Assembly: GCA_963827475.1 (NCBI GenBank)
Contig: CAWHAZ010000004.1
Location: 1 to 64,000 of the forward strand
Source of the DNA: an uncultured Chloroflexia bacterium
GTDB taxonomy: Bacteria > Chloroflexota > Limnocylindria > QHBO01
DNA: 64,000 nucleotides
Direction of reading: 5' to 3'
Positions 37,388 through 59,968 of the stretch are shown here, one piece after another. The stretch's first letter is position 1. Every line of letters begins with the position of its first letter. Under the pieces are notes generated by a model. That model saw nothing but the letters and a program-made list of their open reading frames with translations, did no database searches and had not been told where the DNA came from. Both the position numbers and the translations under genes were made by a program.

Positions 37388-37390
37388 CGG

Positions 37391-38482
37391 TCAGGCCACC
37401 TCCAGCTCAGCCCGGTCCTCGAAGGCCCGCAGGCCGAGGAGGACCACGCGGTGGCGGCGTTCCGGGTCGGAGATCTCGAGCGCGGTCCGCAGAAACTGCC
37501 CGCGCACGGTCGCCTCCTCGGCGATGGCCGCCAGGTCGTACCCGACCATGACGCGGTCGCGGCGGATGACGAGCCCATCGAGGTGGCCGCCGAGGGCGGC
37601 GAGATCCGCGCCGTCGACCCGGACCACGGGCGCGACCGTCCCGGTGAGGGTCACCCGGACTGAGCCCCGCAGGCCGCCGACCACGGCGTTGACCCGGTCC
37701 CGTACGTCGTCCGCGTGCTCGCAGCCGTCGAGCGCGACCTCGACGTCGTGGACCTGGCTGACGGCGACCACGCGTCGCTCGCGTTGCACGAGGCCGTCCG
37801 GCCCGACTGTGGCGAGGACCGCTGCCCGCTCACCGGTCTCGCCAAACTCGAGCGGATCCGGGTTGCCCGGGTAGGTGTGGCGCTCCGCGTCCTTCGGCAG
37901 GTGGAAGTGTCCGAGGAACGCGTGGGCGAAGCCGGCGGCCTCGATCTCCGCCGCGTCGAAGGGGGCGTGGGGCTGCTTCCCGCTCTCCTGGGCCGTCAAC
38001 CAGCTCCGTTCCGAGGCGTGGGCAAGGGCGATGTGGACTCCGCCGCCGACGGCGCGGGCGGAACCGAAGAAGTCGTCGGTGTTGGCCGGCGCGCGGTGGG
38101 CCGCCCCCCACAGGGTTACCCCATCGGTGAGGGGGACCGGTACCAGCTGCGCATCGGTGAACACGTGGACGTTCGGGCTCCAGTGGGTCACCGCGTACGG
38201 GCTCTGGGGTCCGTACCAGTCATGGTTGCCCGGCGCGAGGAAGATCGGTCTGCTGCTCCGGGCGAAGCTGGACTGCAGGAAGGCGACGGTGTCCGGCTGG
38301 ACGCGGTCGTGCTCGAACAGGTCGCCGGCGCACAGGATCGCATCCACCTGCTCGGCTTCGGCCAGGGCCAGGATGCGGGCCAGGGTGTCGCGCCGATGCT
38401 GCCGCCGTCGGTGAGCGGCCTCCGGCTCGAGCCAGGCGAACGGGGCGTCGAGATGGAGGTCCGCGAAGTGCAGCAGCTTCAT
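37391..38482 (-). CDS. SbcD/Mre11-like metallophosphoesterase nuclease
   Basis: HFADLHL, AGDLFE, PGNHD, LGHFH, YPGNP. Confidence 0.92.
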   Translation of the reverse strand: MKLLHFADLHLDAPFAWLEPEAAHRRRQHRRDTLARILALAEAEQVDAILCAGDLFEHDRVQPDTVAFLQSSFARSSRPIFLAPGNHDWYGPQSPYAVTHWSPNVHVFTDAQLVPVPLTDGVTLWGAAHRAPANTDDFFGSARAVGGGVHIALAHASERSWLTAQESGKQPHAPFDAAEIEAAGFAHAFLGHFHLPKDAERHTYPGNPDPLEFGETGERAAVLATVGPDGLVQRERRVVAVSQVHDVEVALDGCEHADDVRDRVNAVVGGLRGSVRVTLTGTVAPVVRVDGADLAALGGHLDGLVIRRDRVMVGYDLAAIAEEATVRGQFLRTALEISDPERRHRVVLLGLRAFEDRAELEVA

Positions 38483-38528
38483 CGGTGGCAAGGATACGGT
38501 CCGCGGCGTGACAGCTCGGGCGTCGCGG

Positions 38529-45395: not shown

Positions 45396-46399
45396 GGCCG
45401 ACACCCCCGACCGTCCCCCAGCCAGCAGGCAGTGGGACCGACGCGGGTCAGACGGCTGCCGGTCGTGTCGACGACATCCGTGGAACCCGGGTCGAAGAGC
45501 AGCAGGAGTGAGGCGTCGGGCGAGAAGCGGGCGAGCGACCCGGCGCCGATCCTGGCTGGCGAGGCGACGCTGTCGAGCGCCGCGAGCCAGGTCACCCCGG
45601 CCTCCGGCCACGCGAGCCATCGCCCGTCCGGGCTGACTTCCACGGCCGCGGCCCGCGGGAGGGCAGTGATTTCCTTCTCGGTGCCGTCGGTCCCAACCTG
45701 GATCAGCGCCACCCCGCCTCCAACCTGGTGGCGGACGAGCACGATCGATCCGTCATCGAGAGCGGTCGCTCCGTAGACCAGCTGGCCCTCGGCCGCAACC
45801 GTCCCCACCGGGGCGATGTCGCCGGTCGCCGGCTCGACGATCTCGGCCGCGGCCCAGATCGGGGCGTCGACCGAGGACAGCCGGACGGCGAGGATCCGCC
45901 CATCGGGGAGGATGGTGGGATCGGGGCCGAAGGGCCCGGGTGCCACCTGAGTGGCCGAGCCGCTGACGGCGTCGACCTGCCACAGGGCTCCGGACAGGTC
46001 CACGACCGCCAGCCAGGCGCCGCCGGGTTCGAATGCCGCTCCCCGGACTCCGGGCACGGAGACCTCGAGCTGCGACCCGTCCTCCCGGGCGAGGGTCATC
46101 GGACCCGGCTGGCCGAGCTCGACGGTGGAGACGGCCACCGTTTCGCCGTCCGGCGACGCGGCCAGCGGCCGGACGATCGACCGCTCATCGCGCGAGCGAG
46201 GCTCGACCAGATCCTCGCCGTCGACCGCGCGCACGGTGAGGGAGAGCGCGCCTCCGCTGTCGCGCAGCGCGGCGGCATTGCGCAGGGTGACCGGCGGCGG
46301 CGGACCGGCACGGACCTGCGGCGAAGAGAGAACGACGACGAGAGCCAGACCGAGCGCGATGGCGCCGGCGGCAAGGAACAGCAAGACGCGGGTAGGCAC
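45392..46399 (-). CDS. Exported beta-propeller (TolB/WD40-like) hypothetical protein
   Basis: N-terminal TM; repeated SPDG/LPDG/FSPD blades; ATGA overlap with the M23 gene. Confidence 0.7.
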   Translation of the reverse strand: MPTRVLLFLAAGAIALGLALVVVLSSPQVRAGPPPPVTLRNAAALRDSGGALSLTVRAVDGEDLVEPRSRDERSIVRPLAASPDGETVAVSTVELGQPGPMTLAREDGSQLEVSVPGVRGAAFEPGGAWLAVVDLSGALWQVDAVSGSATQVAPGPFGPDPTILPDGRILAVRLSSVDAPIWAAAEIVEPATGDIAPVGTVAAEGQLVYGATALDDGSIVLVRHQVGGGVALIQVGTDGTEKEITALPRAAAVEVSPDGRWLAWPEAGVTWLAALDSVASPARIGAGSLARFSPDASLLLLFDPGSTDVVDTTGSRLTRVGPTACWLGDGRGCRP

Positions 46400-46534
46400 C
46401 TCAAACCTCCGAACGGAAGGGGATGGAAGGCGGAATCGGCGGTCGAGGGCGGCTGCGGGATCCTCGGAGCGGTTTCGGACGCGGCCAGCCTGCCAGGCCC
46501 CGCTTACCGCGGACGTATCGCATACTCACCGGCC

Positions 46535-47292
46535 GTGGACGACGCCGCGATCCCCGTGCTGCTGGTCGCGCTCGGGATGCTCGCGATCGCGGGCCGGCGC
46601 CGCGCTCGTCCGCTGGAGCGGAGCCGACACCCGCGCCGGACGCCGGCTGGCCGGTGCCCGGCCCGCCTCCCTCCACGACCTCCATGCGGCCGCCGCTCGC
46701 GGCGAGCTGCCGGCGCACGAGGTCCGCGTCGAAGGGCGGGTGCGCTGCGCGGATCCCATTCGGACGCCGGACGGCGAGCGGCTGGCCCTCCTCCACCGCG
46801 ACATCGAGGTCCAGCAACCCGACGGGCGGTGGCGCACGATCGAGCGCCTCCGCGATGCCCGGACGATCGACCTCTGGGAGCGCTCGACATCGGTCCCGCT
46901 CGACCTGGGCCGGCTGGCAGAGCCGCTGATCACCATTCCGCACCGGTGGGAGGGCTCGCCGTCGGAGCTCGACGCGACCCACCAACCGGCTGTCGCGCGC
47001 GTCGGCTCCGAGGATCAGCCGCCGAAGCGGGCCCGGGCCATCACCCGCCAGGTGATGCTGGTCGACCAGCTCATCGTGCTTGCCGTCCCGAGCCGCGACA
47101 CCGGATGGGGCGGTACGACTCGATCCCCCACCAGGGGGCTTCCTGGTGGCCACCGTGGAGCTGGACGTGGCGCTTCGCCTGCTGGCCGGCCCCCACCGGC
47201 GGCGGATGATCGCCGGCTACGCCGTGGTCGGAGCAGGCCTCGTCCCGCTGGTCATCGGCGTCGTGGCCCTGGGGCTCGCACTCCTCGCCTGA
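46535..47292 (+). CDS. Membrane protein with two terminal TM helices (GIDE-like); frameshifted
   Basis: TM helix, soluble VRVEGRV..PI-containing domain, TM helix, reconstructed across two indels. Confidence 0.6.
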
Positions 47293-47441
47293 CGGGCCCT
47301 GGACAGGCTCCACGCCCCCCATTCGGCGAGCGGGTTGGTACGAACGGGGCATGGAGCCGCCGACTTGCCGTTTCTAGCATGGGCTGCACGCCGCCTACCA
47401 GATCCTCCATTCATCACCTGGAGGCGGACCCAGGGGAACCA

Positions 47442-50273
47442 ATGGCCTCATCGTCCACAAGCGGATCACGACCGGACGCGCTCATCAGCGTGGCCCAGGC
47501 CGCTGCCCTGCTCGGGGTGCACCCCAACACGGTGCGGTCCTGGACCGAAAGCGGGCGCCTCGCCGCGTGGCGGATCAATCCACGGGGCGATCGACGCTAC
47601 CGGCGCGCGGACGTGGAACGGCTCCTGGCCGAGGGCGCGTCGACGCCGACCGAGGCCTCGGACGCGTCGCCTGCCGGGGCGACCCGACAGCCGGAGGTGG
47701 ATGCGGAGGCCGCGGTCCTGACCCGCATCTCGCAGGGCACGGTGGACGCCGGCAGCGTGGCCGCCGTCTGCCGGGTGACGGTCGAATCGCTGCGCACGGT
47801 CGAGGCCATCGCCCGCGTGGCGGTCTATCTGGTTCGCGACGACCGGCTGGTGCTCGAGACCCATGCGGGGCACAGCACGCCGCCGCCGCCCACCCTGTCG
47901 TGGAGCAGTGAGGGAGACGAATTCGGCGCGGATGGCAGCATCCGCCTGCCGCTGACCATCGGCCAGGAGCGGATCGGGGTCCTGCTTGCTGCCGACGACG
48001 TGGACGGGGCATGGGTCCGCAGCCGCCGCCGCTTCCTGATCGCCGCTGCCGCGACCGCCGGCGTCGCCCTGCGCCACGCGCGGGCCATCGCCCGGGCCCG
48101 CCGCGAGCTGACGCGCGCCCGCGCCCTGGCCAGCGTGACCCGTGAGCTCACCGGGCAGCTCGAGCTGGGCGCCGTGCTGAGCGACATCGCGGACCGGACG
48201 CGGGGCCTGTTCGACGCCGACCGGGTCGGCCTGTGGATGATCAACGACGAGCGGGAGCACCCCTTCGACCTGGCCGCCGAGCGCGGGATCAGCCCCGCCT
48301 TCCAGGCCATGATCAGCCAGCTCACCTTCACCAGCCCGTCGCTCGGGACGCAGGCCGTCCGCGAGCGCCGCACGTTCGTGGCCCGCCACGCGGACACCGA
48401 TCCGGCCGTCGGCGTCCTGCAGGACCTCTACCGCGACGAGGGCGTGAAGACCGCCTGCCTGGTCCCGCTCGTCAGCCATGACAAGGCGGTCGGGGTCATC
48501 GGCCTGTACCACGCCCGGGATCGGGAATGGCCCGACGACGAGCTGGCCCTCGCCCAGGCCTTCGCCAACCAGGCCGCGGTCGCGATCAGCAACGCTCGCC
48601 TGTACCGCGCCACGGCCGAGCAGGCGGCCCGCATGCGGTCCATTCACGACCTCTCGGCGCGCCTGAACCGGCTCACCGATGTGCAGGCCATCGCGGACGC
48701 GATCGTGGCCGAGGCGAGCACGCTGGCCGCGTTCCACGACATCCGGATCTACACCGTGGACTGGGAGCGGGGCACGTGCGAGCCAATCGCCTTCACCGAC
48801 CGGCTGCTGGGGGATGGGGACTTCCGAGACCTGCTGCGGGTCGACATCGGTCCGGGCTCGTTTACCGGCTGGGTGGCCGCCAACGCGCAGCCGATCCTGA
48901 GCAACGACGCGATGAACGACGAACGTGGCCTCACGATCGAAGGCACCGAGGAGATCGAGGAGTCGATGCTGGTCGTGCCGATGGTCTACGAGGGTCGGTC
49001 GGTGGGCGTCATCGCGCTCTCCAAGCTGGGCGTGAACCAGTTCTCGACCGATGACCAGCAGACGATGATGATCTTTGCCGGCTACGCGGCCCAGGCCCTG
49101 GTCAACGCCCGCAGCTATCGGCGACTGGAGGAACAGTCCAGCCAGCTGGCGCGGCAGCTCGACAGCCAGCGACGGCTGCTCGACGTGAGCACCCGGGTCA
49201 TGGGCACGCTCGAGCAGGAGGACATCCTCGAGGTCGTGGCCGACGGGCTGAAGGCGGTCGTCCACTACGACAACCTGTCGATCTACCGGGCGGACGCCGC
49301 CAAGCAGGTCCTGGTCCCGGTCCTCACCCGCGAGGAGCACGCGGCCGAGGTCGCCCGCTACATCATTCCGTTCGGCCGCGGCCTGATGGGATGGGTCGTC
49401 GAGCACGGCGAGGCGGTGCTGGCCAACGACGCGCTGGCGGATCCCCGCGCCCTGCAGATCCCCGGCACGCCGGAAGACCAGGAGGCGCTCATCGTCGTCC
49501 CGCTGATCAGCGACGGCCAGGTCACCGGGTCCATGAACGTCAGCCGGGTCGGCGGCGAGGACGTGTACTTCAGCGAGACCGATTTCGAGCTGGTCCAGCT
49601 GTTCGCCGCCCAGGCGGCGGTCGCCCTCCGCAACGCGGACGAGCACCACGCCATGAGCCTGCGGGCAGAGACCGATGCGCTGACCGGGCTCAGCAACCAC
49701 GGCGCCTTCCAGCGCGACCTGGCCGAGGCCATCGAGGCGATCGCCGCGGCGCCGTCGGAGGAGGGCCAGCTCGGCCTGCTGATGATGGACCTCGACCGAT
49801 TCAAGACCTACAACGACCGATTCGGCCACCCGGCCGGTGACGCGCTGCTCCACGCGGTGGGCGAAGCGCTGTACGCGGCCACCCGCAGCGACGACCGGGT
49901 CTACCGCTACGGCGGTGACGAGTTCACCGTGGTGCTGTCCGGGGTCGACCTTCCGGCTGCCCGACGGGTGGCCGAACGCGCCCGTCGGCTGGTTGCCGCC
50001 GTCTCCCTGGAGCGCGGCGCCGCCCCGGTCACGATCACCATCGGCGTCGCCCTCCTCCCCGATCACGGGGAGGGCAAGGACGCGCTGATCGGCGCGGCCG
50101 ATGCCGCCCTGTACGGCGGCAAGCAGGCGGGTGGCGACCAGGTGGTGGTTCCGGGTGAGGCCCCGCGGCCGCAGAGCCGCAAGGCGGCGAAGCCGCGCCG
50201 CGACCCGGACGCCGTCATCGAGCAGCGACGGCGGCGCAGCGACCCGGATCGGACGAGGACGACCGCGGCCTGA
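47442..50273 (+). CDS. Diguanylate cyclase: excisionase/MerR-like HTH + 4 GAF + GGDEF
   Basis: ISVAQAAALLGVHPNTVRSW...GDRRYRRADV; four GAF repeats; TDALTGL, DLDRFKTYND, RSDD I-site, YRYGGDEF. Confidence 0.92.
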   Translation: MASSSTSGSRPDALISVAQAAALLGVHPNTVRSWTESGRLAAWRINPRGDRRYRRADVERLLAEGASTPTEASDASPAGATRQPEVDAEAAVLTRISQGTVDAGSVAAVCRVTVESLRTVEAIARVAVYLVRDDRLVLETHAGHSTPPPPTLSWSSEGDEFGADGSIRLPLTIGQERIGVLLAADDVDGAWVRSRRRFLIAAAATAGVALRHARAIARARRELTRARALASVTRELTGQLELGAVLSDIADRTRGLFDADRVGLWMINDEREHPFDLAAERGISPAFQAMISQLTFTSPSLGTQAVRERRTFVARHADTDPAVGVLQDLYRDEGVKTACLVPLVSHDKAVGVIGLYHARDREWPDDELALAQAFANQAAVAISNARLYRATAEQAARMRSIHDLSARLNRLTDVQAIADAIVAEASTLAAFHDIRIYTVDWERGTCEPIAFTDRLLGDGDFRDLLRVDIGPGSFTGWVAANAQPILSNDAMNDERGLTIEGTEEIEESMLVVPMVYEGRSVGVIALSKLGVNQFSTDDQQTMMIFAGYAAQALVNARSYRRLEEQSSQLARQLDSQRRLLDVSTRVMGTLEQEDILEVVADGLKAVVHYDNLSIYRADAAKQVLVPVLTREEHAAEVARYIIPFGRGLMGWVVEHGEAVLANDALADPRALQIPGTPEDQEALIVVPLISDGQVTGSMNVSRVGGEDVYFSETDFELVQLFAAQAAVALRNADEHHAMSLRAETDALTGLSNHGAFQRDLAEAIEAIAAAPSEEGQLGLLMMDLDRFKTYNDRFGHPAGDALLHAVGEALYAATRSDDRVYRYGGDEFTVVLSGVDLPAARRVAERARRLVAAVSLERGAAPVTITIGVALLPDHGEGKDALIGAADAALYGGKQAGGDQVVVPGEAPRPQSRKAAKPRRDPDAVIEQRRRRSDPDRTRTTAA

Positions 50274-51075: not shown

Positions 51076-52149
51076 ATGACCGACCCCGTGACCGATGACG
51101 AGGAAGTCCCCCACGAGGACGGCTTCGACGAGGACGGCTTCGACGATCTGAGCTTCGACGAGCCTGCTGCCTCCGGCCGCAAGCGCGACCGGCTGGCTCG
51201 CCTGCTATCGGTCATCACCATCCTCTACAGCCGTGGCAGCGGAGAGCAGGGCGTCGCCGTCGATGACATCGCCAGCCTGACCGGGATGAACAAGCGAACG
51301 GTCTACCGCGACCTGAAGGCACTCGAGGACGAGCTGGCGGTCCCGATCTTCCAGGCCGGCCGCGGACGATACGGGATCGAAAAGAAGTACTTCCTGCCGC
51401 CGCTCCAGCTCACCGTGCCCGAAGGGGTCGTCCTGTTCCTCGCGTCACGCCTCATCGCCCAGTGGTCGGACGAGTCGGACCAGGCGGTCATCAGCGCCTT
51501 CACCAAGATCGCGGCCGAGCTGCCCCAGCCCATCGCCCGCCACGTGACGGCGACCATGCTGGCCGTGGGCGAGCTGGACTCGAACGAGCCGTTCACCGCG
51601 ACCTTCAACACCGTCGCTCGCGGCTGGGCCGAGGGGCGGGTGGTCGAGGTCATCTACGCACCAAGCGCCGGTGAATCCCGGAGGACCCGGATCCGGCCGT
51701 ACCTGCTCGAGCCGTCCGCTGCCGGACGGAGCATCTACGTCATCGGCTACGACGAAACCGCCGACGCGATGCGGACCTACAAGATCGAGCGCATCCAGCA
51801 GGCGATCCTGACCGTCGACCGATACGAGATCCCCGACGAATTCCAGCCCGACCAGTTCCTCGCCAACTCGTGGGGCATCTGGTCGTCCGACACGACCGCG
51901 CCGGTCGACGTCCGCCTGCGCTTCGACGCCGGAGTCGCGCGGCGCGTCCACGAAACGATCTGGCACCGGTCGCAGGTCCTGACCGACCTGCCCGACGGAC
52001 GCGTCGACCTGGCGGTGCGCGTGGCGGGGATCGTCGAGATCCGGCCCTGGATCCTGTCGTGGGGAGACCAGGTGGAGGTCCTCGAGCCGCCCGAGCTGCG
52101 GGACGTGGTCGCCACCGCTCTCCGGGGAGCGGCCGGCCGCTACGCCTGA
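51076..52149 (+). CDS. HTH-WYL-WCX transcriptional regulator (PafB/DriD-like)
   Basis: RTVYRDLKAL HTH, IRPYLL..IYVIG..RTYKIERI WYL domain, WILSWGDQVEVLEPPELR. Confidence 0.93.
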   Translation: MTDPVTDDEEVPHEDGFDEDGFDDLSFDEPAASGRKRDRLARLLSVITILYSRGSGEQGVAVDDIASLTGMNKRTVYRDLKALEDELAVPIFQAGRGRYGIEKKYFLPPLQLTVPEGVVLFLASRLIAQWSDESDQAVISAFTKIAAELPQPIARHVTATMLAVGELDSNEPFTATFNTVARGWAEGRVVEVIYAPSAGESRRTRIRPYLLEPSAAGRSIYVIGYDETADAMRTYKIERIQQAILTVDRYEIPDEFQPDQFLANSWGIWSSDTTAPVDVRLRFDAGVARRVHETIWHRSQVLTDLPDGRVDLAVRVAGIVEIRPWILSWGDQVEVLEPPELRDVVATALRGAAGRYA

Positions 52150-52844
52150 GGTTCGCCCAGCGGAAGTCGGAGCAGGAGAGCCAGGGTCGGACGTGCGCGC
52201 GGCTCGGCCGGCGTCACCGGCATCCGCAGCCACGCGTCGCCGGCCACCCCGGCCCGGTGGCGCGCCGACAGACGCCGGGCGGAGAGTCCCTCGATCCCGA
52301 GACGGGACAGGGCCTCGGCCACCAGCGTTCCATCCCCGACGTAGCCATGGCCGACCGTGATCCGATCCCCGGGAGCCAGGATCCGTCCCAGCCAGTCCCG
52401 TCGGATCCGGAAGGTGCGCTTCAGGACAGATTCCCCACCGGCCCACAGCAGGTCGGCGGCGACGTACGCCGCTCGACCGGCGCCGCGCTCGGATCCGCTC
52501 AGCCGGGCCCGCAGCAGATCCGCGTCCGGCCGGCCCTCCGGATCGAGGACGAGCAGCGTCCCGTCGAGCGCCACCCCGTCCTCCGCCAGCTGGCCCGGCA
52601 GCTCACGCAGCTCGGGGAACGCGGTGTCGGCATCCGCCAGGCCGGCGACCTGGAGCCGGACTCGACCGCGTTCGGCGAGGGCGGTGGCCCGGACCCCCGG
52701 CCACCAGGGCTCGAACAGGTAGTCCGGATCGTCGAACGGCGCGGGCGCGTCGGCCGGCTGCATGGGGGCAATCCGTTCCGGCAGCCGGTAACCGGGAGCG
52801 TCCGCCTCCGGATAGGCGGGCAGTGGAAGCTGTTCGGGCGGCAC
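52140..52844 (-). CDS. LigD-type ATP-dependent ligase adenylation-domain homologue lacking the catalytic Lys
   Basis: IAPM, PFDDPDYLFEPWWPGVR, FPEL, LDGTL, AADLL, EGLSAR, DAWLR; no OB domain. Confidence 0.75.
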   Translation of the reverse strand: MPPEQLPLPAYPEADAPGYRLPERIAPMQPADAPAPFDDPDYLFEPWWPGVRATALAERGRVRLQVAGLADADTAFPELRELPGQLAEDGVALDGTLLVLDPEGRPDADLLRARLSGSERGAGRAAYVAADLLWAGGESVLKRTFRIRRDWLGRILAPGDRITVGHGYVGDGTLVAEALSRLGIEGLSARRLSARHRAGVAGDAWLRMPVTPAEPRARPTLALLLRLPLGEPQA

Positions 52845-52852
52845 GCCGCCGG

Positions 52853-53767
52853 TCAGGCGGTCTTTCGCCGCCTGGTCTGGGGAGCCTCGTCAGCCTCGGC
52901 CGATTTCTTCGCTCGGCTCCGCCGCGCGGGCGTCGGCTTGGCGGCGGCCTTCTCTCCGGCGTCCGCTCCCGCCGCCGCGTCGCGGCGGGCCTCGCGGGCA
53001 GCGGCCACGCTGGCCTCCAGGGCGGCCATCAGGTCGCCGATCTTGGTCGGCTCGGTGGCCGCGATCGGCGTCGGCTCCTCGCCGGAGACCTTGGCCTCGA
53101 TGACGCCCATCAGCGCCTGGCGGTACTCGTCCCGGAACTCCTCGGCACTGAACTCGCTGGTCATGGATGCGATGAGCTGCTCGGCCATCTTCCGCTCCGA
53201 GGCCTTGATCTCGATCCCGCTGCTGTCGACCGCCAGCTCCTCGATGGGCCGGATCTCGTCCGGCCAGTGGAGGGTGGTCATGAGCATCGACTCGGCATAC
53301 GGGTTGATGGCCGCCAGCTGCTCGCGATCCTTCATGACGACCTTGCAGATCGCGCTCTTGCCCTCGTCGGCGAGGACCTGGCGGAGGAGGAAGAAGGCCT
53401 TCTTGCCGACGGGGTCGGGCTCGAGGTAGTAGGCGCTCTTCACGAACGCTGCGCCGTGGTCTTCCTTGTCGGCGGCCACGAACATCGCGATCTCGATGGA
53501 GCGGACCGTCTTGAGCGGCACCGCCTCGAGGTCCTCATCGGTCACGACCACGTATCGGCCCTTGCTCCATTCGTAGCCGCGGACCGTCTCGGAGCGCGGG
53601 ACGACCTCGTCGTGGAACGGGCAGTAGATCTTCATCTGGATCCGGTTCAGGCAGCTGGCGTGCAGCATGTTGAAGCCGATTCCGCTCGACTCGGTCGCGA
53701 GGTAGAGCTTGACGGGGATCGTCACCAGCCCGAACTGGATCGCCCCCCGCCACATCGCGCGTGCCAT
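52853..53767 (-). CDS. ku: Prokaryotic Ku (NHEJ DNA end-binding protein)
   Basis: MWRGAIQFGLVTIPVKLY, RGYE, YYLEP, TLHWPDEIR, FRDEY, DLMAALEAS, basic tail. Confidence 0.96.
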   Translation of the reverse strand: MARAMWRGAIQFGLVTIPVKLYLATESSGIGFNMLHASCLNRIQMKIYCPFHDEVVPRSETVRGYEWSKGRYVVVTDEDLEAVPLKTVRSIEIAMFVAADKEDHGAAFVKSAYYLEPDPVGKKAFFLLRQVLADEGKSAICKVVMKDREQLAAINPYAESMLMTTLHWPDEIRPIEELAVDSSGIEIKASERKMAEQLIASMTSEFSAEEFRDEYRQALMGVIEAKVSGEEPTPIAATEPTKIGDLMAALEASVAAAREARRDAAAGADAGEKAAAKPTPARRSRAKKSAEADEAPQTRRRKTA

Positions 53768-53830
53768 AGGGCCGTCGAGGATACACCCGGTCCGCCACCG
53801 CGGCGATCGGTCGCCCCGGCCGATTCCGGG

Positions 53831-54432
53831 CTAGGACTCGACCTCGGGCGGGAGCCAGCTGCGGGCTTCGTCTTCGGGGATGAGGTCCTCGAGGGCCGAG
53901 CCGGGCCCGGCGTCATCGGCGACCACCAGCATCTCCGCCACCTTGCGCTGGACCGCGAGTACAGGGGCGTTGCGGTTGAAGCCCGGGAACGCCGCGGATG
54001 CCACGGCCACGTCGGTCAGGGCCAGGAACGGATCGGCCACGTTCAGGACGTCGGTCGCCTGGCTGCCGAAGGGAACGTGGACGGTGCCCGACAGCCAGAA
54101 GGGGTGCAGCGCGACGTCGATCCGGACCGGGCGCTTCTGGACGACCAGATCCGGGTTCGCGCTGTCGTCGACACCAGTGCTGATCCCGAACAGGACCGCT
54201 TCCACGGCGACCATGACCGTGCTCCCGCTGTGGGTCGCTGCCGCGGTCTCGCCGAATACTCGACGACGGTGGCCTGCTCGACGTTGAGGTGGGTCGACCC
54301 GCTCAGGTTGAGGATGTCGGCGACGCGCCGAAAGCGGGTCGCCATCTCGCCCCGCACCCGGTAGCCGGGGGTGTACAGCTCGACCTGCACCCGGCTGATC
54401 TGCGGACCGAAGGCATCAGGGTCCCATCCCAT
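53831..54432 (-). CDS. Hypothetical protein with an internally duplicated small beta domain (frameshift ~54245)
   Basis: Two similar halves: VELYTPGYRVRG..RVADILN..HL and IDVALHPFWLSG..ATDVLN..FLALTD. Confidence 0.65.
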
Positions 54433-54441
54433 CGGCCGATC

Positions 54442-55219
54442 CTAGCGCTTGCGCGCCTTCCAGACCTCTTCGCTCGGCCACCGGCGTGCCCAGTCGATGG
54501 TGGCGATGTTCTCCCACGTCGTGGTCGAGCCCTCCGGCGGCTGGATCTCCATGAGGTCCGTGACCTCGAACCCAGTCCGGGTGAGAAGTCGAAACATGTC
54601 GCTGTGCGACAGGTGGAACTCCACCGCGTTCGGGTCGTCCGGCCATTCGAACCGATGCATGCCGAACTGGGGACGCCTCAGGCGCTCCCCGGCCGGTCCC
54701 TCGGCCTCGGTGTCGGGGACGGCGAGCATGACGAGCACGCTGTTGGCGAGAAAGATCAGCTCGCCGCCGGGTCGGAGCAGCCGCCATGCTTCGGGGATCC
54801 ACTGGTAGGGATCGGCCCAGATGGCGGCGCCGTACTCGGAGATCGCCACGTCGAAGCTCTCGTCGGGCAGCGGGACGCGCTCCGCATAGCCGAGCATCAG
54901 GGGGAACGCGAGTCCGTGCTCCTGCTGAAGCCGTCGAGCCGTTTCGAGCTGTCGGGGAGAGTTGTCCAGTCCGGTGACGCGCGCACCGCGTCGTGCCATC
55001 CAGGCCGACACGTAGGCCGTCCCGCACCCGAGCTCGATGACGTCCTTCCCGTCGAGATCCTCCGGCAGCAGATGCACCTGCGATTCGGGCACGCTCCAGA
55101 TGCCCCATCTCGGCTCAGCGGCGGCCCACGCTCGCTCACCGGGCGCGACGTGCTCCTCGGCCGCTATGTCCCAACCGATGCGGTTGCGGCGGACGTGGTC
55201 CGGCAGGTCATTCGGTCAC
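54442..55219 (-). CDS. Class I SAM-dependent methyltransferase
   Basis: IELGCGTA, GLDNS, ESFDVAISEYG, LLRPGG. The frame extends upstream of the listed ORF to ~55212. Confidence 0.9.
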
Positions 55220-55243
55220 CAGAGCAGTGTGTAGGATCGGGCG

Positions 55244-57572
55244 ATGGACGCGCGGGCCGATGTCCTCGGTTCAGACGCCCCGACCTTCACCGTGGAGGAG
55301 GCGGGATCGCTCGCCCACGCCCTCTTTGGCGTCAGCGGCAGCGCGGAGCCGCTGGTCAGCGAGCGGGACCAGAACTTTCGGCTGACCGATGGCGATGGCG
55401 TCGCCTGGGTCCTGAAGATCTCGAACGCGGTCGAGGACCCGGCCGTGGTCGACATGGAGGTCCAGGCCGTGCGCCACGTGGCCCGCATGGATCCGACCCT
55501 GCCGGTCCCCGTGCCGCGGCCGGCCGAGAACGGAGACGCCGTCGTTCGCGTCCCCGGTCGGGCCGGTGGCGAGCACCTCGTCCGGCTCATCCCGTTCCTG
55601 CCCGGCCGCCACGTCGACCCGTCGAGCCTGGGGCCGGAGGCCCTCGCCGAGATCGGGCGGGTCACCGCTCGCCTGGGGCGGGCGTTGCGCGGCTTCTTCC
55701 ATCCGGCCGCGGGCCGGGTGATCCTGTGGGACCTCAAGCACCTCGATCTCCTCCGGCCGCACCTGGAGGCGGTGACCGATCCGGCCCGTCGAGCCCTGGT
55801 CGACTCGGCACTCGAGCGCTACGACCGTCGGGTGGCGCCGGCCCTCCCGACCCTGCGGTCCCAGGTCATCCACAACGACCTGACCCTCGACAACCTCCTG
55901 CTCGACGGGGACCGGGTGAGCGGCATCGTCGACTTCGGCGACATGGCGCACACCGCGATGGCGCTGGATCTGTCGGCCATGCTCCAGTCGGTCCTCCGCG
56001 GCCGCTCGGACGTGTTCGAGGCCGCGGCCGCGGCGATCCGGGGCTACGTCGAGGTCACGCCCCTCGAGCCGGAGGAGGCGGACCTCCTGGCCGACCTGCT
56101 CGCGGCGAGGATGGTCCAGACCGTGCTGATCTCGGTCTGGCGCATCGCGCAGTACCCCGACAACGCCTACATCACCGGCTGGCTCGAGCCGGCATACGAG
56201 CTGCTCGAGCAGCTCGAGGCAGCCGGCTGGGAGGCGTCGGGCCATCGCCTGGCGCGCGCGGCGCGCGACCCGGTTGGCGTGCCATCCATGCAGAGCACGG
56301 ACCTCGCCGCGCGTCGACGGTGTCCTCGGCTCGGCGCTGTCGCCGCTCACCTACGAGCGGCCACTCCACGTGGTTCGGGGGGAGGGGGTGTGGCTCACCG
56401 ACGCCGACGGCAACCGCTATCTCGACGCCTACAACAACGTCCCGGTCGTGGGCCACGGCCATCCAGTCGTGGTCGAGGCGATCGCGCGCCAGGCCGGCGC
56501 GCTCAACACCAACACCCGGTACCTCCACGAGGCGGTCGTCCTGCTCGCCGAGCGGATCACGGCCAGCATGCCGCCCGGCCTGGACACGGTGATGCTCGTG
56601 AACAGCGGCAGCGAGGCAAACGACCTCGCCTGGCGCCTGGCGACGGTCTTCACCGGCGGCACGGGCGGCATCGTCAGCCGCTGGTCGTACCACGGCCTGA
56701 CAGCGGCCGTCGCCGACCTGTCGACCTCTGAGTGGCCTCGCGGGGAGCAGCCACCGGCCGTCGAGACCATCCCCGCTCCAAATCCGTACCGCGGCCCGCA
56801 CGTCGACGACTCCGACCTCGACGCCGCGAGCGCCGCCGAGCTGGACGGGGCAGTGGCGCGGCTGGCGGAGCGCGGCGTGCGGGCTGCCGCGCTCTACCTC
56901 GACGGGCTGTTCACCGCAGACGGGATCGTTCCGCCCAGCCCACGCTACCTGGAGCTCATCGCCGAGCGGGCGCGGGCGTCCGGGGTCGTGTACGTCGCCG
57001 ACGAAGTGCAGTCGGGGCACGGTCGGACCGGGGACGGCCTGTGGAGCTTCAGCGGGAGCGAGATCACGCCCGACCTCGTGACGTTGGGCAAGCCGATGGG
57101 CAACGGCCACCCGGTCGCCGCGGTCGTGGCACGGTCCGAGATCGTCGACCGCTTCGCGGTGGACCATGAGTTCTTCAGCACCTTCGGGGGCAACCCCGTG
57201 GCCAGCGCCGCAGCGCTGGCGGTCCTCGACGTCATCGAGTCGGAGCGCCTGGTCGAGAACGCGGCCGCCGTCGGCACCCGTCTGCGGGAGGCCATTCGCG
57301 ACCTGGCCGCGACGCACCCGGCGATCGGAGATGTGCGAGGCCGGGGCCTGATGGTCGGCGTGGACCTCGTCGAGGACCCCGCGACGCGCGAACCGGCCGC
57401 CCAGCTCGCCAAGGCGGTGATGAACGGCATGCGGGAGCGCGGGGTCCTGATCAGCACCACGGGCCGCGAGGGGAATGTCCTGAAGATCCGACCGCCGCTG
57501 GTCATCAGCGCGGACGAGGCCGCGATCATCGTCGAGGCCCTCGACGCATCCCTGACCGCCGCCCGCGTCTGA
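55244..57572 (+). CDS. Aminoglycoside-phosphotransferase-like kinase fused to a class III aminotransferase (hydroxylysine kinase/phospho-lyase type); frameshift ~56310
   Basis: SERDQNF, IHND..DNLL, IVDFGD; then YLDAYNNVP, NSGSEAND, ADEVQSG, TLGKPMGNG, LKIRPPL. Confidence 0.88.
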
Positions 57573-57582
57573 CCCCGGCGGG

Positions 57583-59307
57583 CTACTCCCCCTCCAGGCT
57601 CCCGGTGGCGGTGATCCGCGCCTCCTGCCCGCCGCGCCCGGTTGCGAGCAGGATCCGGCCGCTCGCCTGGGCCTCGAACAGGGTCTCGACCGTGGCCAGG
57701 GTGTCGATGTCGGCCACCGTCTTGTCGTCGCGGACGCGGGCGATGCGCGGAAAGCGGAGCGCGAAGCCGCTGCCGTGCCGGCCGCTGCGCATGATCCGGT
57801 CGAACGCGATCTCGACGATCACCTCGGGGACGACGGTCCGGAAGCGCCCGTGGTCGCGGATGGTCGTCCGCTGGAAGTGCTCGGTGAAGGCCGCGATCTC
57901 GGCATCGGTCAGCCCGGTGTAGGCCTTGCCGATGACCACCAGCGACTCGCCGTCCGGCCCGCGGACGGCGAAGGTGTAGTCCGACAGCACGCCCCGGCGC
58001 TTGCCGTGGCCCCACTCGACACCGACCACCACGCAATCGAGGGTCGCGAGCGCCTTCTTCAGCTTGAGCCAGCCAAGTCCTCGGCGACCTGGTTGGTAGA
58101 CCGATGCGGGGTCCTTGACCATCAGCCCCTCGTTGTGCCGCGCCCGCGCGGCGTCGAAGTGGACGTCGACCTCGCCGGCCGAGCCCGCGCGGTCGAGGCG
58201 GGCGTACAGGAACCGCCCATCGGTGCGCTCGGGCAGCTCGAGCCCCTCCAGGGCGGCCCGCCGGTCGCGGAGCGGCTGTTCGAGGAGGTCCGCCCCGTCG
58301 AGATGGAGCAGGTCGAAGGCGACGAGCACAACCGGGACGCTGTCCAGCAGCCCGGCGTCGGGCCGCACCCGCCCGAGCCGCGTCTGGAGGGCGGCGAAGT
58401 CGAGGACCGCGCCTTCACGAAAGGGGATGAGCTCGCCGTCGATCAGCAGGGCGTGGCCCAGGGCGGTGGCAGCGGTCGCGACCTCGGGAAACGAAACGGT
58501 GACGTCCTTCAGGTCGCGGCTGAACAGGCGGGCTTCGCCGTCGCGGAGATGGAGCTGGGCGCGGATGCCGTCGTACTTGTCCTCGATCCACGCCTCGTCG
58601 CCAACCCGCCGCATGACCTCGTCCGCATCGCCGACCGGGGTGGCGAGCATCGGACGGATCGGCCGGCCGACCTGCAGTGCGGCCTCGTCGAGCCTCTGTC
58701 GCCGGGCCAGGGTGGCCGCTTCGCCAGGCTCTCCGAGGAGCATGAGCGCGCGGCGCACCGATGCGAGCGGGGCGTCGAACGCGGCGGCAATCGCCTCCTC
58801 CAGCAGCCCTTCGCGCAGGCCGATCCGCAGCTCACGGGCCGCGATCCGGGCGATGTAGCGAGCCTCATCCGATGTGGCGCGACCGAACAGGTCGGCCATG
58901 ATCCGCACCCGCTCGTCCGCCGCGGAGGCGACGGCCATGGCCCGGTAGGCGGCCGCCACATCGGCCACGGTCAGCGGCGCCGGCGAGAGCGGGCGGGCGG
59001 CGAGCAGCTCCGCCGCCACGTCGCCAAAATCGGAGTGGCGCAGCCACGCAGCGGACATGGCGGCCTCGTCCGCCCCGCTCGCCGCGGCGAGCGCCGCCGC
59101 CTGGTGGACAAAACCGAGCCCCAGCCGGTCCGCGGAGCCGGGCAGCGGCGACCCTGCCAGGAACGTGGCCGCCAGCGGCAGGTCCCCGGCCGGCAGCTCG
59201 CGCAGGTACGCCCCCAGCCGGTCGCGCTTGGCGAGCTTCGACCGTGTCGCGGCGACGTCGTCGGCGGCCTGGGCGAAGGCGGCGAACGGGGAGCTGCGGG
59301 CGGCCAC
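57583..59307 (-). CDS. ATP-dependent DNA ligase (LigB-type)
   Basis: DBD with LRIG, PMLA, EDKYDGIR, DGE, FDLL, EGLMVK, WLKLK, ALRFPR. Confidence 0.95.
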   Translation of the reverse strand: MAARSSPFAAFAQAADDVAATRSKLAKRDRLGAYLRELPAGDLPLAATFLAGSPLPGSADRLGLGFVHQAAALAAASGADEAAMSAAWLRHSDFGDVAAELLAARPLSPAPLTVADVAAAYRAMAVASAADERVRIMADLFGRATSDEARYIARIAARELRIGLREGLLEEAIAAAFDAPLASVRRALMLLGEPGEAATLARRQRLDEAALQVGRPIRPMLATPVGDADEVMRRVGDEAWIEDKYDGIRAQLHLRDGEARLFSRDLKDVTVSFPEVATAATALGHALLIDGELIPFREGAVLDFAALQTRLGRVRPDAGLLDSVPVVLVAFDLLHLDGADLLEQPLRDRRAALEGLELPERTDGRFLYARLDRAGSAGEVDVHFDAARARHNEGLMVKDPASVYQPGRRGLGWLKLKKALATLDCVVVGVEWGHGKRRGVLSDYTFAVRGPDGESLVVIGKAYTGLTDAEIAAFTEHFQRTTIRDHGRFRTVVPEVIVEIAFDRIMRSGRHGSGFALRFPRIARVRDDKTVADIDTLATVETLFEAQASGRILLATGRGGQEARITATGSLEGE

Positions 59308-59367
59308 GCCCACGAGTCTAGGCGCCCGCTTGACGGGCGCCATCGGTCCGGCCACCCTTCCCGCCGC

Positions 59368-59968
59368 ATGACCTCCTTCGCCCGCGACGTCCCGCCGGCG
59401 GTCGCCGACCGCCTGCCGCCGGGGCAGGTGCTCACCGAGAAATTCCCCGTGCTCCAGTTCGGCCAGGTGCCCGCGTACCCCGACCTGTCGGGCTGGGACC
59501 TGCGGGTCTGGGGCGCGGTCGAGCAGCCCATCACGCTGAAGTGGGCGGAGGTCCGCGCCCTGCCGGTCCGCGAGGTGACGCTCGACATCCATTGCGTGAC
59601 CCGCTGGTCGAAGCTCGACACGACCTGGGAGGGTGCCCCGATCGCCCACCTGGCGGAGGCTGCCGCCATCCAGCGGGAGGCGACGCACGTGATCTTCCAC
59701 TCCGAGTACGGCTACACCGCCAACGTTCCGCTGGAGCATCGCCCTCCAGCCGGACGCGCTCGTGGCCTGGAACTACGACGGCAAGCCCCTCGAGCCGGAG
59801 CACGGCTATCCGCTGCGCGCGCTGGTCCCGGGTCGCTACTTCTGGAAGAGCGCGAAGTGGCTGCGCGGGATCGAGTTCAGCGTGGACGACCGGCCCGGAT
59901 TCTGGGAGCGGAACGGGTACAACAACAACGCCGACCCGTGGCGCGAGGAGCGGTACTCCGATGACTGA
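59368..59968 (+). CDS. Sulfite oxidase-family molybdopterin protein (YuiH-like); frameshift ~59740
   Basis: [38 protein letters not shown]. Confidence 0.92.

Follow-up and report, generated by a model that had tools for sequence, protein, structure and literature searches.

In the usual teaching, bacterial NHEJ is a minimal system with just two proteins, Ku and LigD. In M. tuberculosis, the C-terminus of Ku touches the LIG domain of LigD, and D522, K579, and L580 are given as the Ku-touching residues of this domain in the part of the report that describes the contact (PMC13717202). "Non-conventional" bacterial NHEJ sets, in the sections of two reports that deal with them, combine Ku with separate LIG-only proteins, as in the case of Streptomyces LigC/LigD (PMC7719229, PMC5124664). 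The survey in PMC7719229 assigned proteins to classes by domain matches and apparently left the catalytic residues unchecked. In eukaryotic NHEJ, DNA ligase IV is reported to have a structural part that is independent of catalysis (PMC9638927, PMC3549972, PMC10858965, PMC11754673).

Here we describe a locus in a 64-kb window (the whole stretch of DNA that was analyzed) where ku is followed by a gene, hereafter X, for a LigD-type ligase domain whose catalytic residues are replaced.

The ku-X Unit

The unit consists of the following elements.

52853..53767, minus strand: ku (304 aa), the first of the two genes that make up the ku-X unit (TIGR02772, Pfam Ku)
53778..53784, minus strand: promoter-like -10 element GTATCCT, 10 nt before the ku ATG
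52140..52844, minus strand: X, a stand-alone LigD-type ligase NTase domain (pseudo-ligase) of 234 aa with a GTG start

The ku product scored 268.3 bits against TIGR02772, the Ku_bact equivalog (cutoff 150), and matched the Pfam Ku domain at 1.8e-41. Its stop codon TGA (52855-52853) is followed by 8 nt and then by the GTG of X at 52844; the ORF and its start and stop positions thus confirm the intact 234-aa frame 8 bp past ku that had been noticed from the sequence alone. The same arrangement was found in all 71 loci having more than 1 kb of upstream sequence, where ku is directly 5' of X on the same strand, and the two genes are mostly separated by 6-14 nt or overlap by 4 nt. The exception is a short locus (L072) whose 620-730 nt upstream of X contain no ku. 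A pattern TTGc...GgtGTAnnnT is conserved 5' of ku in the window and in 70 aligned loci, and the promoter-like element is conserved 5' of ku only. By its match to the consensus, the putative -10 element would imply a leaderless or near-leaderless ku-X mRNA.

Catalytic Motifs, Domains, and Fold of X

Three short segments of X are referred to below.

52695..52712, minus strand: motif I remnant E45-P-W-W-P-G50, with W47 in place of the adenylated Lys and P49 in place of Asp
52818..52835, minus strand: N-terminal word EQLPLP (residues 4-9), conserved, in a segment that is not confidently folded
52158..52193, minus strand: C-terminal tail RPTLALLLRLPL (residues 218-229), conserved, at the expected start of the OB domain and unconfident in the monomer model

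Motifs III, IIIa, IV, and V of ligases contribute catalytic and nucleotide-binding residues. In the phmmer alignment of X to the ligase domain of M. tuberculosis LigD (1vs0/6nhx, E ~4e-15), motif I changes from FEGKWDGYR to FEPWWPGVR, motif III from LDGE to LDGT, motif IIIa from FWAFD to YVAAD, motif IV from EGVIAKR to EGLSARR, and motif V from WVK to WLR. All catalytic positions are therefore exchanged: in motif I, W stands for K and P for D, and the later motifs have T for E, A for F, and twice R for K, exactly the motif-by-motif loss that the sequence-only reading had claimed. In particular, X has EPWWPGVR at the place of KxDGxR with its adenylated Lys. Similarly, the DGE, FD, EGxxxK, and WxK signatures are lost in the family as a whole, by substitution of E to T or W, F to S or A, and K to R in both of the latter. 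The X protein of the window contains a single Lys at a nonconserved position, and the highest share of Lys in any column of the alignment of 80 X members is at most 15% of rows.

The NTase domain is the only domain of X, as Pfam gave no match for OB, POL, or PE domains in this protein. The OB fold with motif VI that would follow the NTase domain is absent (no PF04679 match); X ends 27 residues beyond motif V, and its stop codon is overlapped by a gene for a WYL regulator. The PE and POL domains of LigD, searched by tblastn, had zero matches across the whole 64-kb window. The view of X as a protein without OB, polymerase, and phosphoesterase domains was upheld by both searches. X scored under every curated family cutoff applied: 20.7 bits against PF01068 (cutoff 26.2) and at most 87 bits against the NCBIfam LigD models with cutoffs of 228-989 (TIGR02779, 67.9 versus 227.75; NF007210, 87 versus 989).

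The AF2 monomer model of X (pLDDT 87.7, pTM 0.80) is confident for residues 21-210, with pLDDT of 52-56 for residues 1-20 and 55-67 for the C-terminal tail. The best Foldseek matches of the model were ATP-dependent DNA ligases, including the LIG domain of M. tuberculosis LigD (TMq 0.65-0.73, E-values from 1.9e-13 to 1e-10). As modeled, X is an NTase (adenylation) domain fold.

Conservation and Selection

In the alignment of 80 family members, W47, P49, and R207 are invariant and R190 is retained in 76 rows, position 96 is occupied by T in 44 and by W in 26, and position 130 by S (52), A (10), G (6), C (5), or T (5). Both segments outside the confidently folded core are also conserved. L6 and L8 of the N-terminal word are kept in at least 90% of the 80 rows, and in the C-terminal tail P219, L221, and L227 are invariant, and R218, R226, and P228 are present in at least 90% of rows; the ratio of regional dN to gene dS is 0.13 for the former segment and 0.083 for the latter. 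E[PA]WWPG is retained at 79 of the 80 genomic loci. None of the 120 best homologues of X has KxDG; 117 have EPWWPG and three have one-residue variants of it.

The pairwise NG86 dN/dS ratio between the window and locus L001 is 0.106 for X and 0.127 for ku. Over 32 close pairs, X has a median of 0.105 and ku one of 0.160; the ratio of this set is biased downward, as its pairs were chosen for low dN of X. Over all unsaturated pairs the medians are 0.44 (X) and 0.36 (ku), which are higher because dS is compressed at GC3 of ~0.9. Judged by these substitution ratios, X is under purifying selection with dN/dS of ~0.1, similar to ku. As an enzyme homologue that has lost its catalytic residues and is under purifying selection, X would be a pseudoenzyme.

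Missing catalytic residues could also be explained by pseudogene decay or by an error of sequencing or assembly, and frameshifts do occur in a few long-read MAG loci (L004, L043, L047, L060, and L068). Nevertheless, this origin of X is ruled out for practical purposes, its probability being negligible, by the intact frame, by the same substitutions recurring in 79 of 80 loci and 120 of the 120 closest proteins, and by the low dN/dS. The sequence-only reading, which had argued for a maintained pseudo-enzyme and had named homologues keeping KxDG and a neutrally evolving ORF as signs to the contrary, holds here, as neither sign was found.

The invariance of the altered motif I, together with Arg for Lys at motifs IV and V, which keeps the positive charge, could also indicate a remodeled pocket that binds a small molecule or a DNA end or performs an unorthodox catalysis, for instance nucleotide sensing or holding of a 5'-phosphate. 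However, much of the invariance of motif I is inherited, because FEP, the second W, and G are shared with the active LigDs of neighboring genes (LFEPKWDGYR). Moreover, X has lost both the Phe that stacks on adenine and the Glu that binds ribose, a conserved Lys is absent, and X, having no OB domain, is unable to encircle DNA. We consider a remodeled pocket highly improbable.

Phylogeny and Distribution

Among species-representative genomes, 130 relatives of X were found. The family is nearly confined to Candidatus Limnocylindria, a class of Chloroflexota, and forms a single clade with an SH-aLRT support of 98 on a quick tree for which this is the only support measure. This clade is not sister to the LigDs encoded next to ku-X, which belong to the ordinary K-type clade, and an origin of X as a recent tandem duplicate of the adjacent LigD was rejected on these grounds. 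The active sequences nearest to X are LigDs at ~35-43% identity. Among the 150 best representatives, 33 carry the motif, in proteins of 88-323 aa. As a piece of weak evidence, no fused or longer forms of X were found at E <= 1e-20 among proteins of 411-2000 aa.

The proteins of the family are labeled "bifunctional NHEJ protein LigD" by JGI and "hypothetical protein" by NCBI, and the protein atlas matches of X were only the family's own clusters, also named "hypothetical protein". A search of openly accessible full-text articles found no published description of X. Membership of ku-X in a defense system was considered and rejected: PADLOC had no match for X, Ku, or three small upstream ORFs, and its only matches were those of the WYL protein (WYL and Cas3c-type models).

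Neighboring Ligases and the WYL Regulator

Two genes flank the unit.

57583..59307 (ORF 57583-59739), minus strand: LigB-type ATP-dependent DNA ligase, intact and with three domains (Pfam N, M, and C)
51076..52149, plus strand: HTH-WYL-WCX regulator that converges on X (Pfam WCX 1.3e-19, WYL 3.3e-11)

The ligase has all three Pfam domains over their cutoffs, scores 373.7 against NF002868 (under the cutoff of 641), and retains the motifs EDKYDGIR, DGE, FDLL, EGLMVKD, and WLKLKK, with the motif I Lys present. The sequence-only reading had placed an intact LigB-type ligase ~4 kb from the unit, and this description was correct. It had also supposed that ligation is outsourced to this enzyme, in which case X could be an adaptor that recruits to Ku a ligase having no Ku-binding POL domain of its own. 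In agreement with such a role, a LigB-type ligase of at least 60% identity is located 5' of ku-X on the same strand in 33 of the 45 loci with more than 7.5 kb of upstream sequence, at a distance of 2.3-5.3 kb in the syntenic loci, and POL and PE domains are absent not only from the window but also within 10 kb on either side in 74 of 80 loci. On the other hand, a complete PE-LIG-OB-POL LigD directly adjoins ku-X in six of 80 loci, so that X does not require LigD to be missing and coexists there with a working NHEJ ligase, and many divergent X loci have neither LigD nor a LigB-type ligase within 10 kb. Outsourced ligation is thus not established, and the adaptor role seems to us rather unlikely. 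The LigB-type ligase is a syntenic neighbor and an unproven candidate member of the module.

The regulator has the HTH, WYL, and WCX domains in one protein, and we take it to be similar to PafBC/DriD. The convergence of a WYL gene on the pair was seen correctly in the window, where the 3' ends of the two genes overlap by 10 nt; elsewhere it is mostly looser, as 48 of 61 loci have a convergent WYL gene downstream of X, and only four of the 61 have it within 150 bp. The genes inserted between X and WYL at other loci (Wzy_C/TPR, CYTH) are unrelated. We regard the WYL regulator as a neighbor whose candidate link to ku-X is unproven.

Prediction of a Ku-X Complex

The complex of two Ku chains with X, the modeling of which had been suggested along with the sequence-only reading, was predicted with a score of 0.60 (runs of 0.57, 0.60, and 0.71), whereas the best of three controls scored 0.00. 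Of 157 solved complexes, 116 reach the mark used for this score, as do two of 215 mismatched pairs; scores of 0.60 or less account for only 18 of the 157 solved complexes and for both mismatched pairs that reach the mark, and the prediction is accordingly classed as "weak support". The runs agreed in at least 31% of contacts with a partner pLDDT of at least 74. The prediction yielded no interface and could partly mirror the likeness of X to LigD in Ku-LigD models. The Ku-touching residues D522, K579, and L580 of the M. tuberculosis LIG domain map to positions 88, 150, and 151 of X. Of the 80 members, 44 have E at position 88, and at position 151 R is found in 42 and W in 22; position 150 varies. 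Because none of the three is conserved, an interface of the M. tuberculosis type is not evidently retained in X.

These data also bear on a role of X as a brake, where a dead copy of the LIG domain would occupy the site of the ligase on Ku or on the DNA end and delay or limit ligation for as long as it stays there. X shares its fold with the M. tuberculosis LIG domain to which the C-terminus of Ku binds (PMC13717202), it has lost the catalytic residues while keeping the Arg of motifs IV and V, it is found alongside intact LigD in the six loci mentioned above, and the complex was predicted at the level of "weak support". At the same time, the contact residues of the M. tuberculosis domain are not conserved in X, and an inhibitor whose translation is coupled to that of its target, and for which no regulation of its own is evident, would dampen the pathway at all times. 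A brake is an unlikely explanation in our estimate.

Discussion

We propose, with a probability of roughly 0.55, that X is a selected non-catalytic paralogue of the LigD NTase domain, made together with Ku as an accessory subunit of end joining. A single ku-X transcript would lead to joint production of both proteins. X would be incapable of adenylation or ligation, and it may bind the Ku dimer, possibly via its conserved words at the N- and C-termini, which appear to be disordered, and/or dock by its NTase body to the C-terminal arm of Ku, as the LIG domain of LigD does in M. tuberculosis. At the break, X would act structurally, stabilizing or gating the Ku-end complex and handing it off to the real ligase, which would be LigD where present and perhaps the LigB-type enzyme in the lineage of the window.

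A broader and more tentative possibility, which we hold with less than even confidence, is that NHEJ of Limnocylindria is a three-component machine, in which a dead ligase domain is an obligate stoichiometric partner of Ku and organizes the break for a separate ligase. LigD-like domains without the motif I Lys are found in at least six further places on the tree. Bacterial end joining may therefore even have a recurring layer of pseudo-ligases that has been overlooked and that surveys based on domains take for real ligases. A conserved, selected, and catalytically empty ligase domain tied to ku in a whole class would be a non-enzymatic third player, and ku-X is a simple model in which the structural roles of ligases at breaks can be studied. 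Another consequence is that a ligase can be reported where none exists, both in annotations and in censuses based on HMMs, which affects inferences on which uncultured soil and freshwater Chloroflexota can perform NHEJ.

Comparison with Known Systems

The LIG domain of LigD (M. tuberculosis Rv0938, PDB 1vs0 and 6nhx) and X are alike in the NTase fold, the order of motifs, and the neighborhood of ku, with 28-29% identity in the structural alignment. They differ in that X lacks the Lys nucleophile as well as any other conserved Lys, and its motifs I, III, IIIa, IV, and V are altered. In addition, X lacks the OB domain of LigD (hence motif VI) as well as POL and PE, and forms its own clade.

The non-conventional NHEJ sets, as presented in the reports introduced above, resemble ku-X in that Ku is combined with a stand-alone LIG-type protein and not with a three-domain LigD. 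The LIG-only proteins of these sets are treated there as active and consist of NTase and OB domains, in contrast to X. Because the survey PMC7719229, in its classification as described, relies on domain matches, X would be miscounted in it as LIG.

X has no homology to XRCC4, XLF, or PAXX; the three-component reading, if correct, would parallel the structural roles of Lig4 and XRCC4-type factors in eukaryotes. By analogy, and within the portions of the ligase IV literature cited above, X and eukaryotic ligase IV may be alike as ligase bodies that serve the end-joining complex apart from catalysis. Ligase IV, however, is described there as one active enzyme with a second job, the catalytically deficient forms being engineered mutants, whereas X is a separate gene in which catalysis would be permanently lost.

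The ku-X gene pair and the domain content of X

The window has a G+C content of ~72%, and the ku gene in it is directly followed by a second ORF on the same strand, here called X:

52853-53767, (-) strand: ku, 304 aa, 268 bits against the bacterial Ku equivalog (cutoff 150)
52140-52844, (-) strand: X, 234 aa, GTG start, 8 nt past ku

The sole domain matched by X, and that weakly, is the ATP-dependent ligase adenylation (NTase) domain: Pfam PF01068 yields 20.7 bits, under the gathering score of 26.2, and the NCBIfam LigD models yield at most 87 bits, far under their cutoffs. The top phmmer match among PDB sequences is the M. tuberculosis LigD ligase domain (E ~4e-15). X ends 27 residues past motif V, and its stop codon overlaps that of the WYL regulator gene (51076-52149, (+) strand) by 10 nt, thus leaving no space for an OB domain; tblastn with the LigD phosphoesterase (PE) and polymerase (POL) domains across the 64-kb window gave no match. 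Both the intact 234-aa ORF 8 bp after ku and the absence of OB, POL and PE domains, claimed in the sequence-only reading, were thereby confirmed. The AlphaFold2 model of X, built from 80 family sequences (pLDDT 87.7, pTM 0.80), is confident for residues 21-210 and of low confidence for residues 1-20 and 211-234; among PDB structures it comes closest to archaeal ATP ligases and to the ligase (LIG) domain of M. tuberculosis LigD, with query-normalised TM scores of 0.65-0.73.

Loss of catalytic residues

Alignment of X with the M. tuberculosis LigD ligase domain by phmmer revealed the same set of substitutions as had been read from the sequence alone: FEGKWDGYR to FEPWWPGVR (motif I), LDGE to LDGT (motif III), FWAFD to YVAAD (motif IIIa), EGVIAKR to EGLSARR (motif IV), and WVK to WLR (motif V). 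In the 80-row family alignment (X numbering), W47, P49, and R207 are invariant, R190 occurs in 76 rows, and position 96 is filled by Thr (44 rows) or Trp (26 rows). Position 130, the site of the adenine-stacking Phe of ligases, is Ser, Ala, Gly, Cys or Thr. Since in every column of this alignment at most 15% of rows have Lys, and the lone Lys of the window protein is unconserved, a "migrated" nucleophile is not available. Judging from these residues, X would be incapable of ligation.

Conservation and origin of the X family

A word-indexed protein search with X (8000 candidates scored) produced 836 matches at E <= 1e-3. The altered motif I is present in all 120 closest of them (66-96% identity; 117 with EPWWPG and three with one-residue variants), and K-x-D-G, which in close homologs would speak for recent decay, occurs in none of these 120. 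An exhaustive search of representative proteins gave 4645 matches at E <= 1e-3, 21 of them at E <= 1e-30; among the best 150 of the 4645, 33 have the altered motif (88-323 aa, many of them fragments), the remainder being LigDs of the ordinary kind or other variants. A scan of GTDB species, each represented by one genome, revealed at least 130 relatives, from which 80 loci were retained, labeled nearly all as Limnocylindria or Chloroflexota. E[PA]WWPG is retained in 79 of the 80 ORFs, the exception (L060) coming from a frameshifted long-read assembly.

Between the window and locus L001 the ratio dN/dS (NG86) is 0.106 for X and 0.127 for ku, and between the window and L003, 0.176 and 0.119, respectively. 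The medians for 32 close pairs are 0.105 (X) and 0.160 (ku), these pairs being selected for a low dN of X, so that the X ratio is biased downward; those for all 1376 unsaturated of 2080 pairs, 0.44 and 0.36, are overestimates caused by compression of dS at GC3 ~0.9. The termini of X are constrained as much as its core (dN of the region over dS of the gene: N-terminus 0.13, core 0.091, C-terminus 0.083). With the motif recurring in nearly all ORFs and dN/dS low, X is a maintained family and not a decaying gene, as the sequence-only reading had proposed.

On a quick, unrooted maximum-likelihood tree of 150 NTase domains, with SH-aLRT in place of bootstrap support, the motif-bearing sequences form one clade of 41 rows (SH-aLRT 98), including two fragments without the motif I region. 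The LigDs that adjoin X in some genomes lie elsewhere, in the ordinary Lys-containing LigD clade; thus X is not a fresh duplicate of the adjoining LigD but an offshoot that is old and of single origin.

Eight loci (L002, L018, L029, L035, L036, L048, L057, and L078) share the ku-X block despite being labeled Pleomorphomonadaceae, Zixiibacteriota, Steroidobacteraceae, Binatia, Gaiellaceae or Solirubrobacterales. Most of them also have Limnocylindria synteny, and from this common synteny they are likely mis-binned.

About 32 other LigD-like ligase domains without the motif I Lys are found among the best 150 of the 4645 representatives (P0146-P0273), for example the groups P0159/P0170/P0249/P0255/P0273, P0178/P0189/P0200/P0210/P0262, P0167/P0172, and P0153/P0179/P0205/P0234. 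At 300-400 aa, many of them probably include an OB domain. They occupy at least six separate places on the quick tree, and therefore nucleophile loss in LigD-type domains looks recurrent.

Linkage to ku and the promoter region

Wherever more than 1 kb of sequence is available upstream of X (71 loci), its immediate upstream neighbor on the same strand is ku (69 scored by script; L060 and L075 added, their ku being present but broken by frameshifts). The spacing is mostly 6-14 nt, or a 4-nt overlap. In L072, no ku was found within the ~620-730 nt available upstream of X. A promoter-like element, TTGc...GTAnnnT, is conserved upstream of ku across loci; in the window its -10-like part is:

53778-53784, (-) strand: -10-like element of ku, ending 10 nt before the ATG

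The distance of 7-10 nt from this element to the ku start in the clade of the window (window, L001-L014, L027, L060) suggests a leaderless ku-X mRNA there; other clades have a 30-77 nt ku leader with a GGAG-type ribosome site. Just upstream of the ku -35 element, a GGTACC-like repeated word (GGTACCnATGGGGTACC) is seen in roughly 15 loci, including L031, L035, L036, L044, L051, L055, L056, and L064, and is absent upstream of ku in the window itself. This word may be an operator.

Neighboring genes

Six of the 80 loci have a full LigD adjoining ku-X: in four (L059, L068, L071, and L075) it follows X downstream, and in the other two (L076 and L080) it precedes ku. The L059 protein (1037 aa) has Pfam matches to PE, LIG, OB, and POL. 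The LigB-type ligase gene is syntenic upstream of ku-X in 33 of 45 eligible loci. The convergence of the WYL gene on the pair, noted from the window sequence, holds as to orientation (48 of 61 loci) but not as to proximity (within 150 bp in only 4), and unrelated genes fill the X-WYL interval at other loci. The tight unit is ku-X only.

The PADLOC 'Cas3c' model matches the WYL/WCX regulator with 234.7 bits (profile positions 21-309 of 1009), probably because the model has a WYL-type region at its N-terminus and not through a CRISPR link. Other neighbors in the window are:

34889-38491, (-) strand: SbcC/Rad50-like ATPase (832 aa) and SbcD/Mre11-like phosphoesterase (366 aa)
45951-50273, (+) strand: MerR-HTH + 3xGAF + GGDEF protein, up to 1440 aa
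53831-54214, 54416-55108, and 55216-55737, (-) strand: three small ORFs between ku and the LigB-type ligase gene

The SbcC-SbcD-like pair is a second DNA-end-processing pair, ~15 kb from ku-X. In most loci the gene for the GGDEF protein keeps its synteny with the WYL/ku-X block; the three small ORFs are syntenic in part of the clade. The small-ORF product 63 nt upstream of ku is a DUF6812 protein (127 aa); those of 230 and 173 aa had no match in Pfam or PADLOC.

Predicted Ku-X interaction

The complex of two Ku chains with X, each chain with its own family alignment, was predicted with a score of 0.60 (runs 0.57, 0.60, and 0.71), compared to 0.00 for the best of three controls, and was graded 'weak support'; at least 31% of contacts agree between runs, and the partner pLDDT is at least 74. 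Of 157 solved complexes, 116 reach the score mark, as do 2 of 215 mismatched pairs; scores of 0.60 or less comprise only 18 of the 157 plus both passing mismatches. This calibration only roughly fits a three-chain prediction with user-supplied alignments. Given the strong prior from the operon structure, we regard this score as modest support for binding.

In work published in 2026, the C-terminus of M. tuberculosis Ku was shown to touch the LigD LIG domain at D522, R567, K579, and L580 (PMC13717202). The equivalents of D522, K579, and L580 in X by phmmer alignment, positions 88, 150, and 151, are not conserved in the 80-row alignment, and therefore this exact interface is not evidently retained.

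Proposed role

In public databases X-family proteins are labeled either "hypothetical protein" or "bifunctional NHEJ protein LigD", the latter wrongly, and the full texts searched contained no description of a Lys-less ligase-domain Ku partner. The comparative evidence for the family is strong; its function is a proposed one. X would be produced together with Ku, to which it most probably attaches as a structural subunit. Candidate Ku contacts are the NTase body and two end motifs, EQLxLP and RPxLALIxRLPL, which are conserved and apparently disordered. In this position X could protect ends, stabilize synapsis, serve the hand-off to LigD or a LigB-type ligase, or restrain ligation. Eukaryotic ligase IV reportedly has a structural role when catalytically dead; its likeness to X is a functional analogy only.
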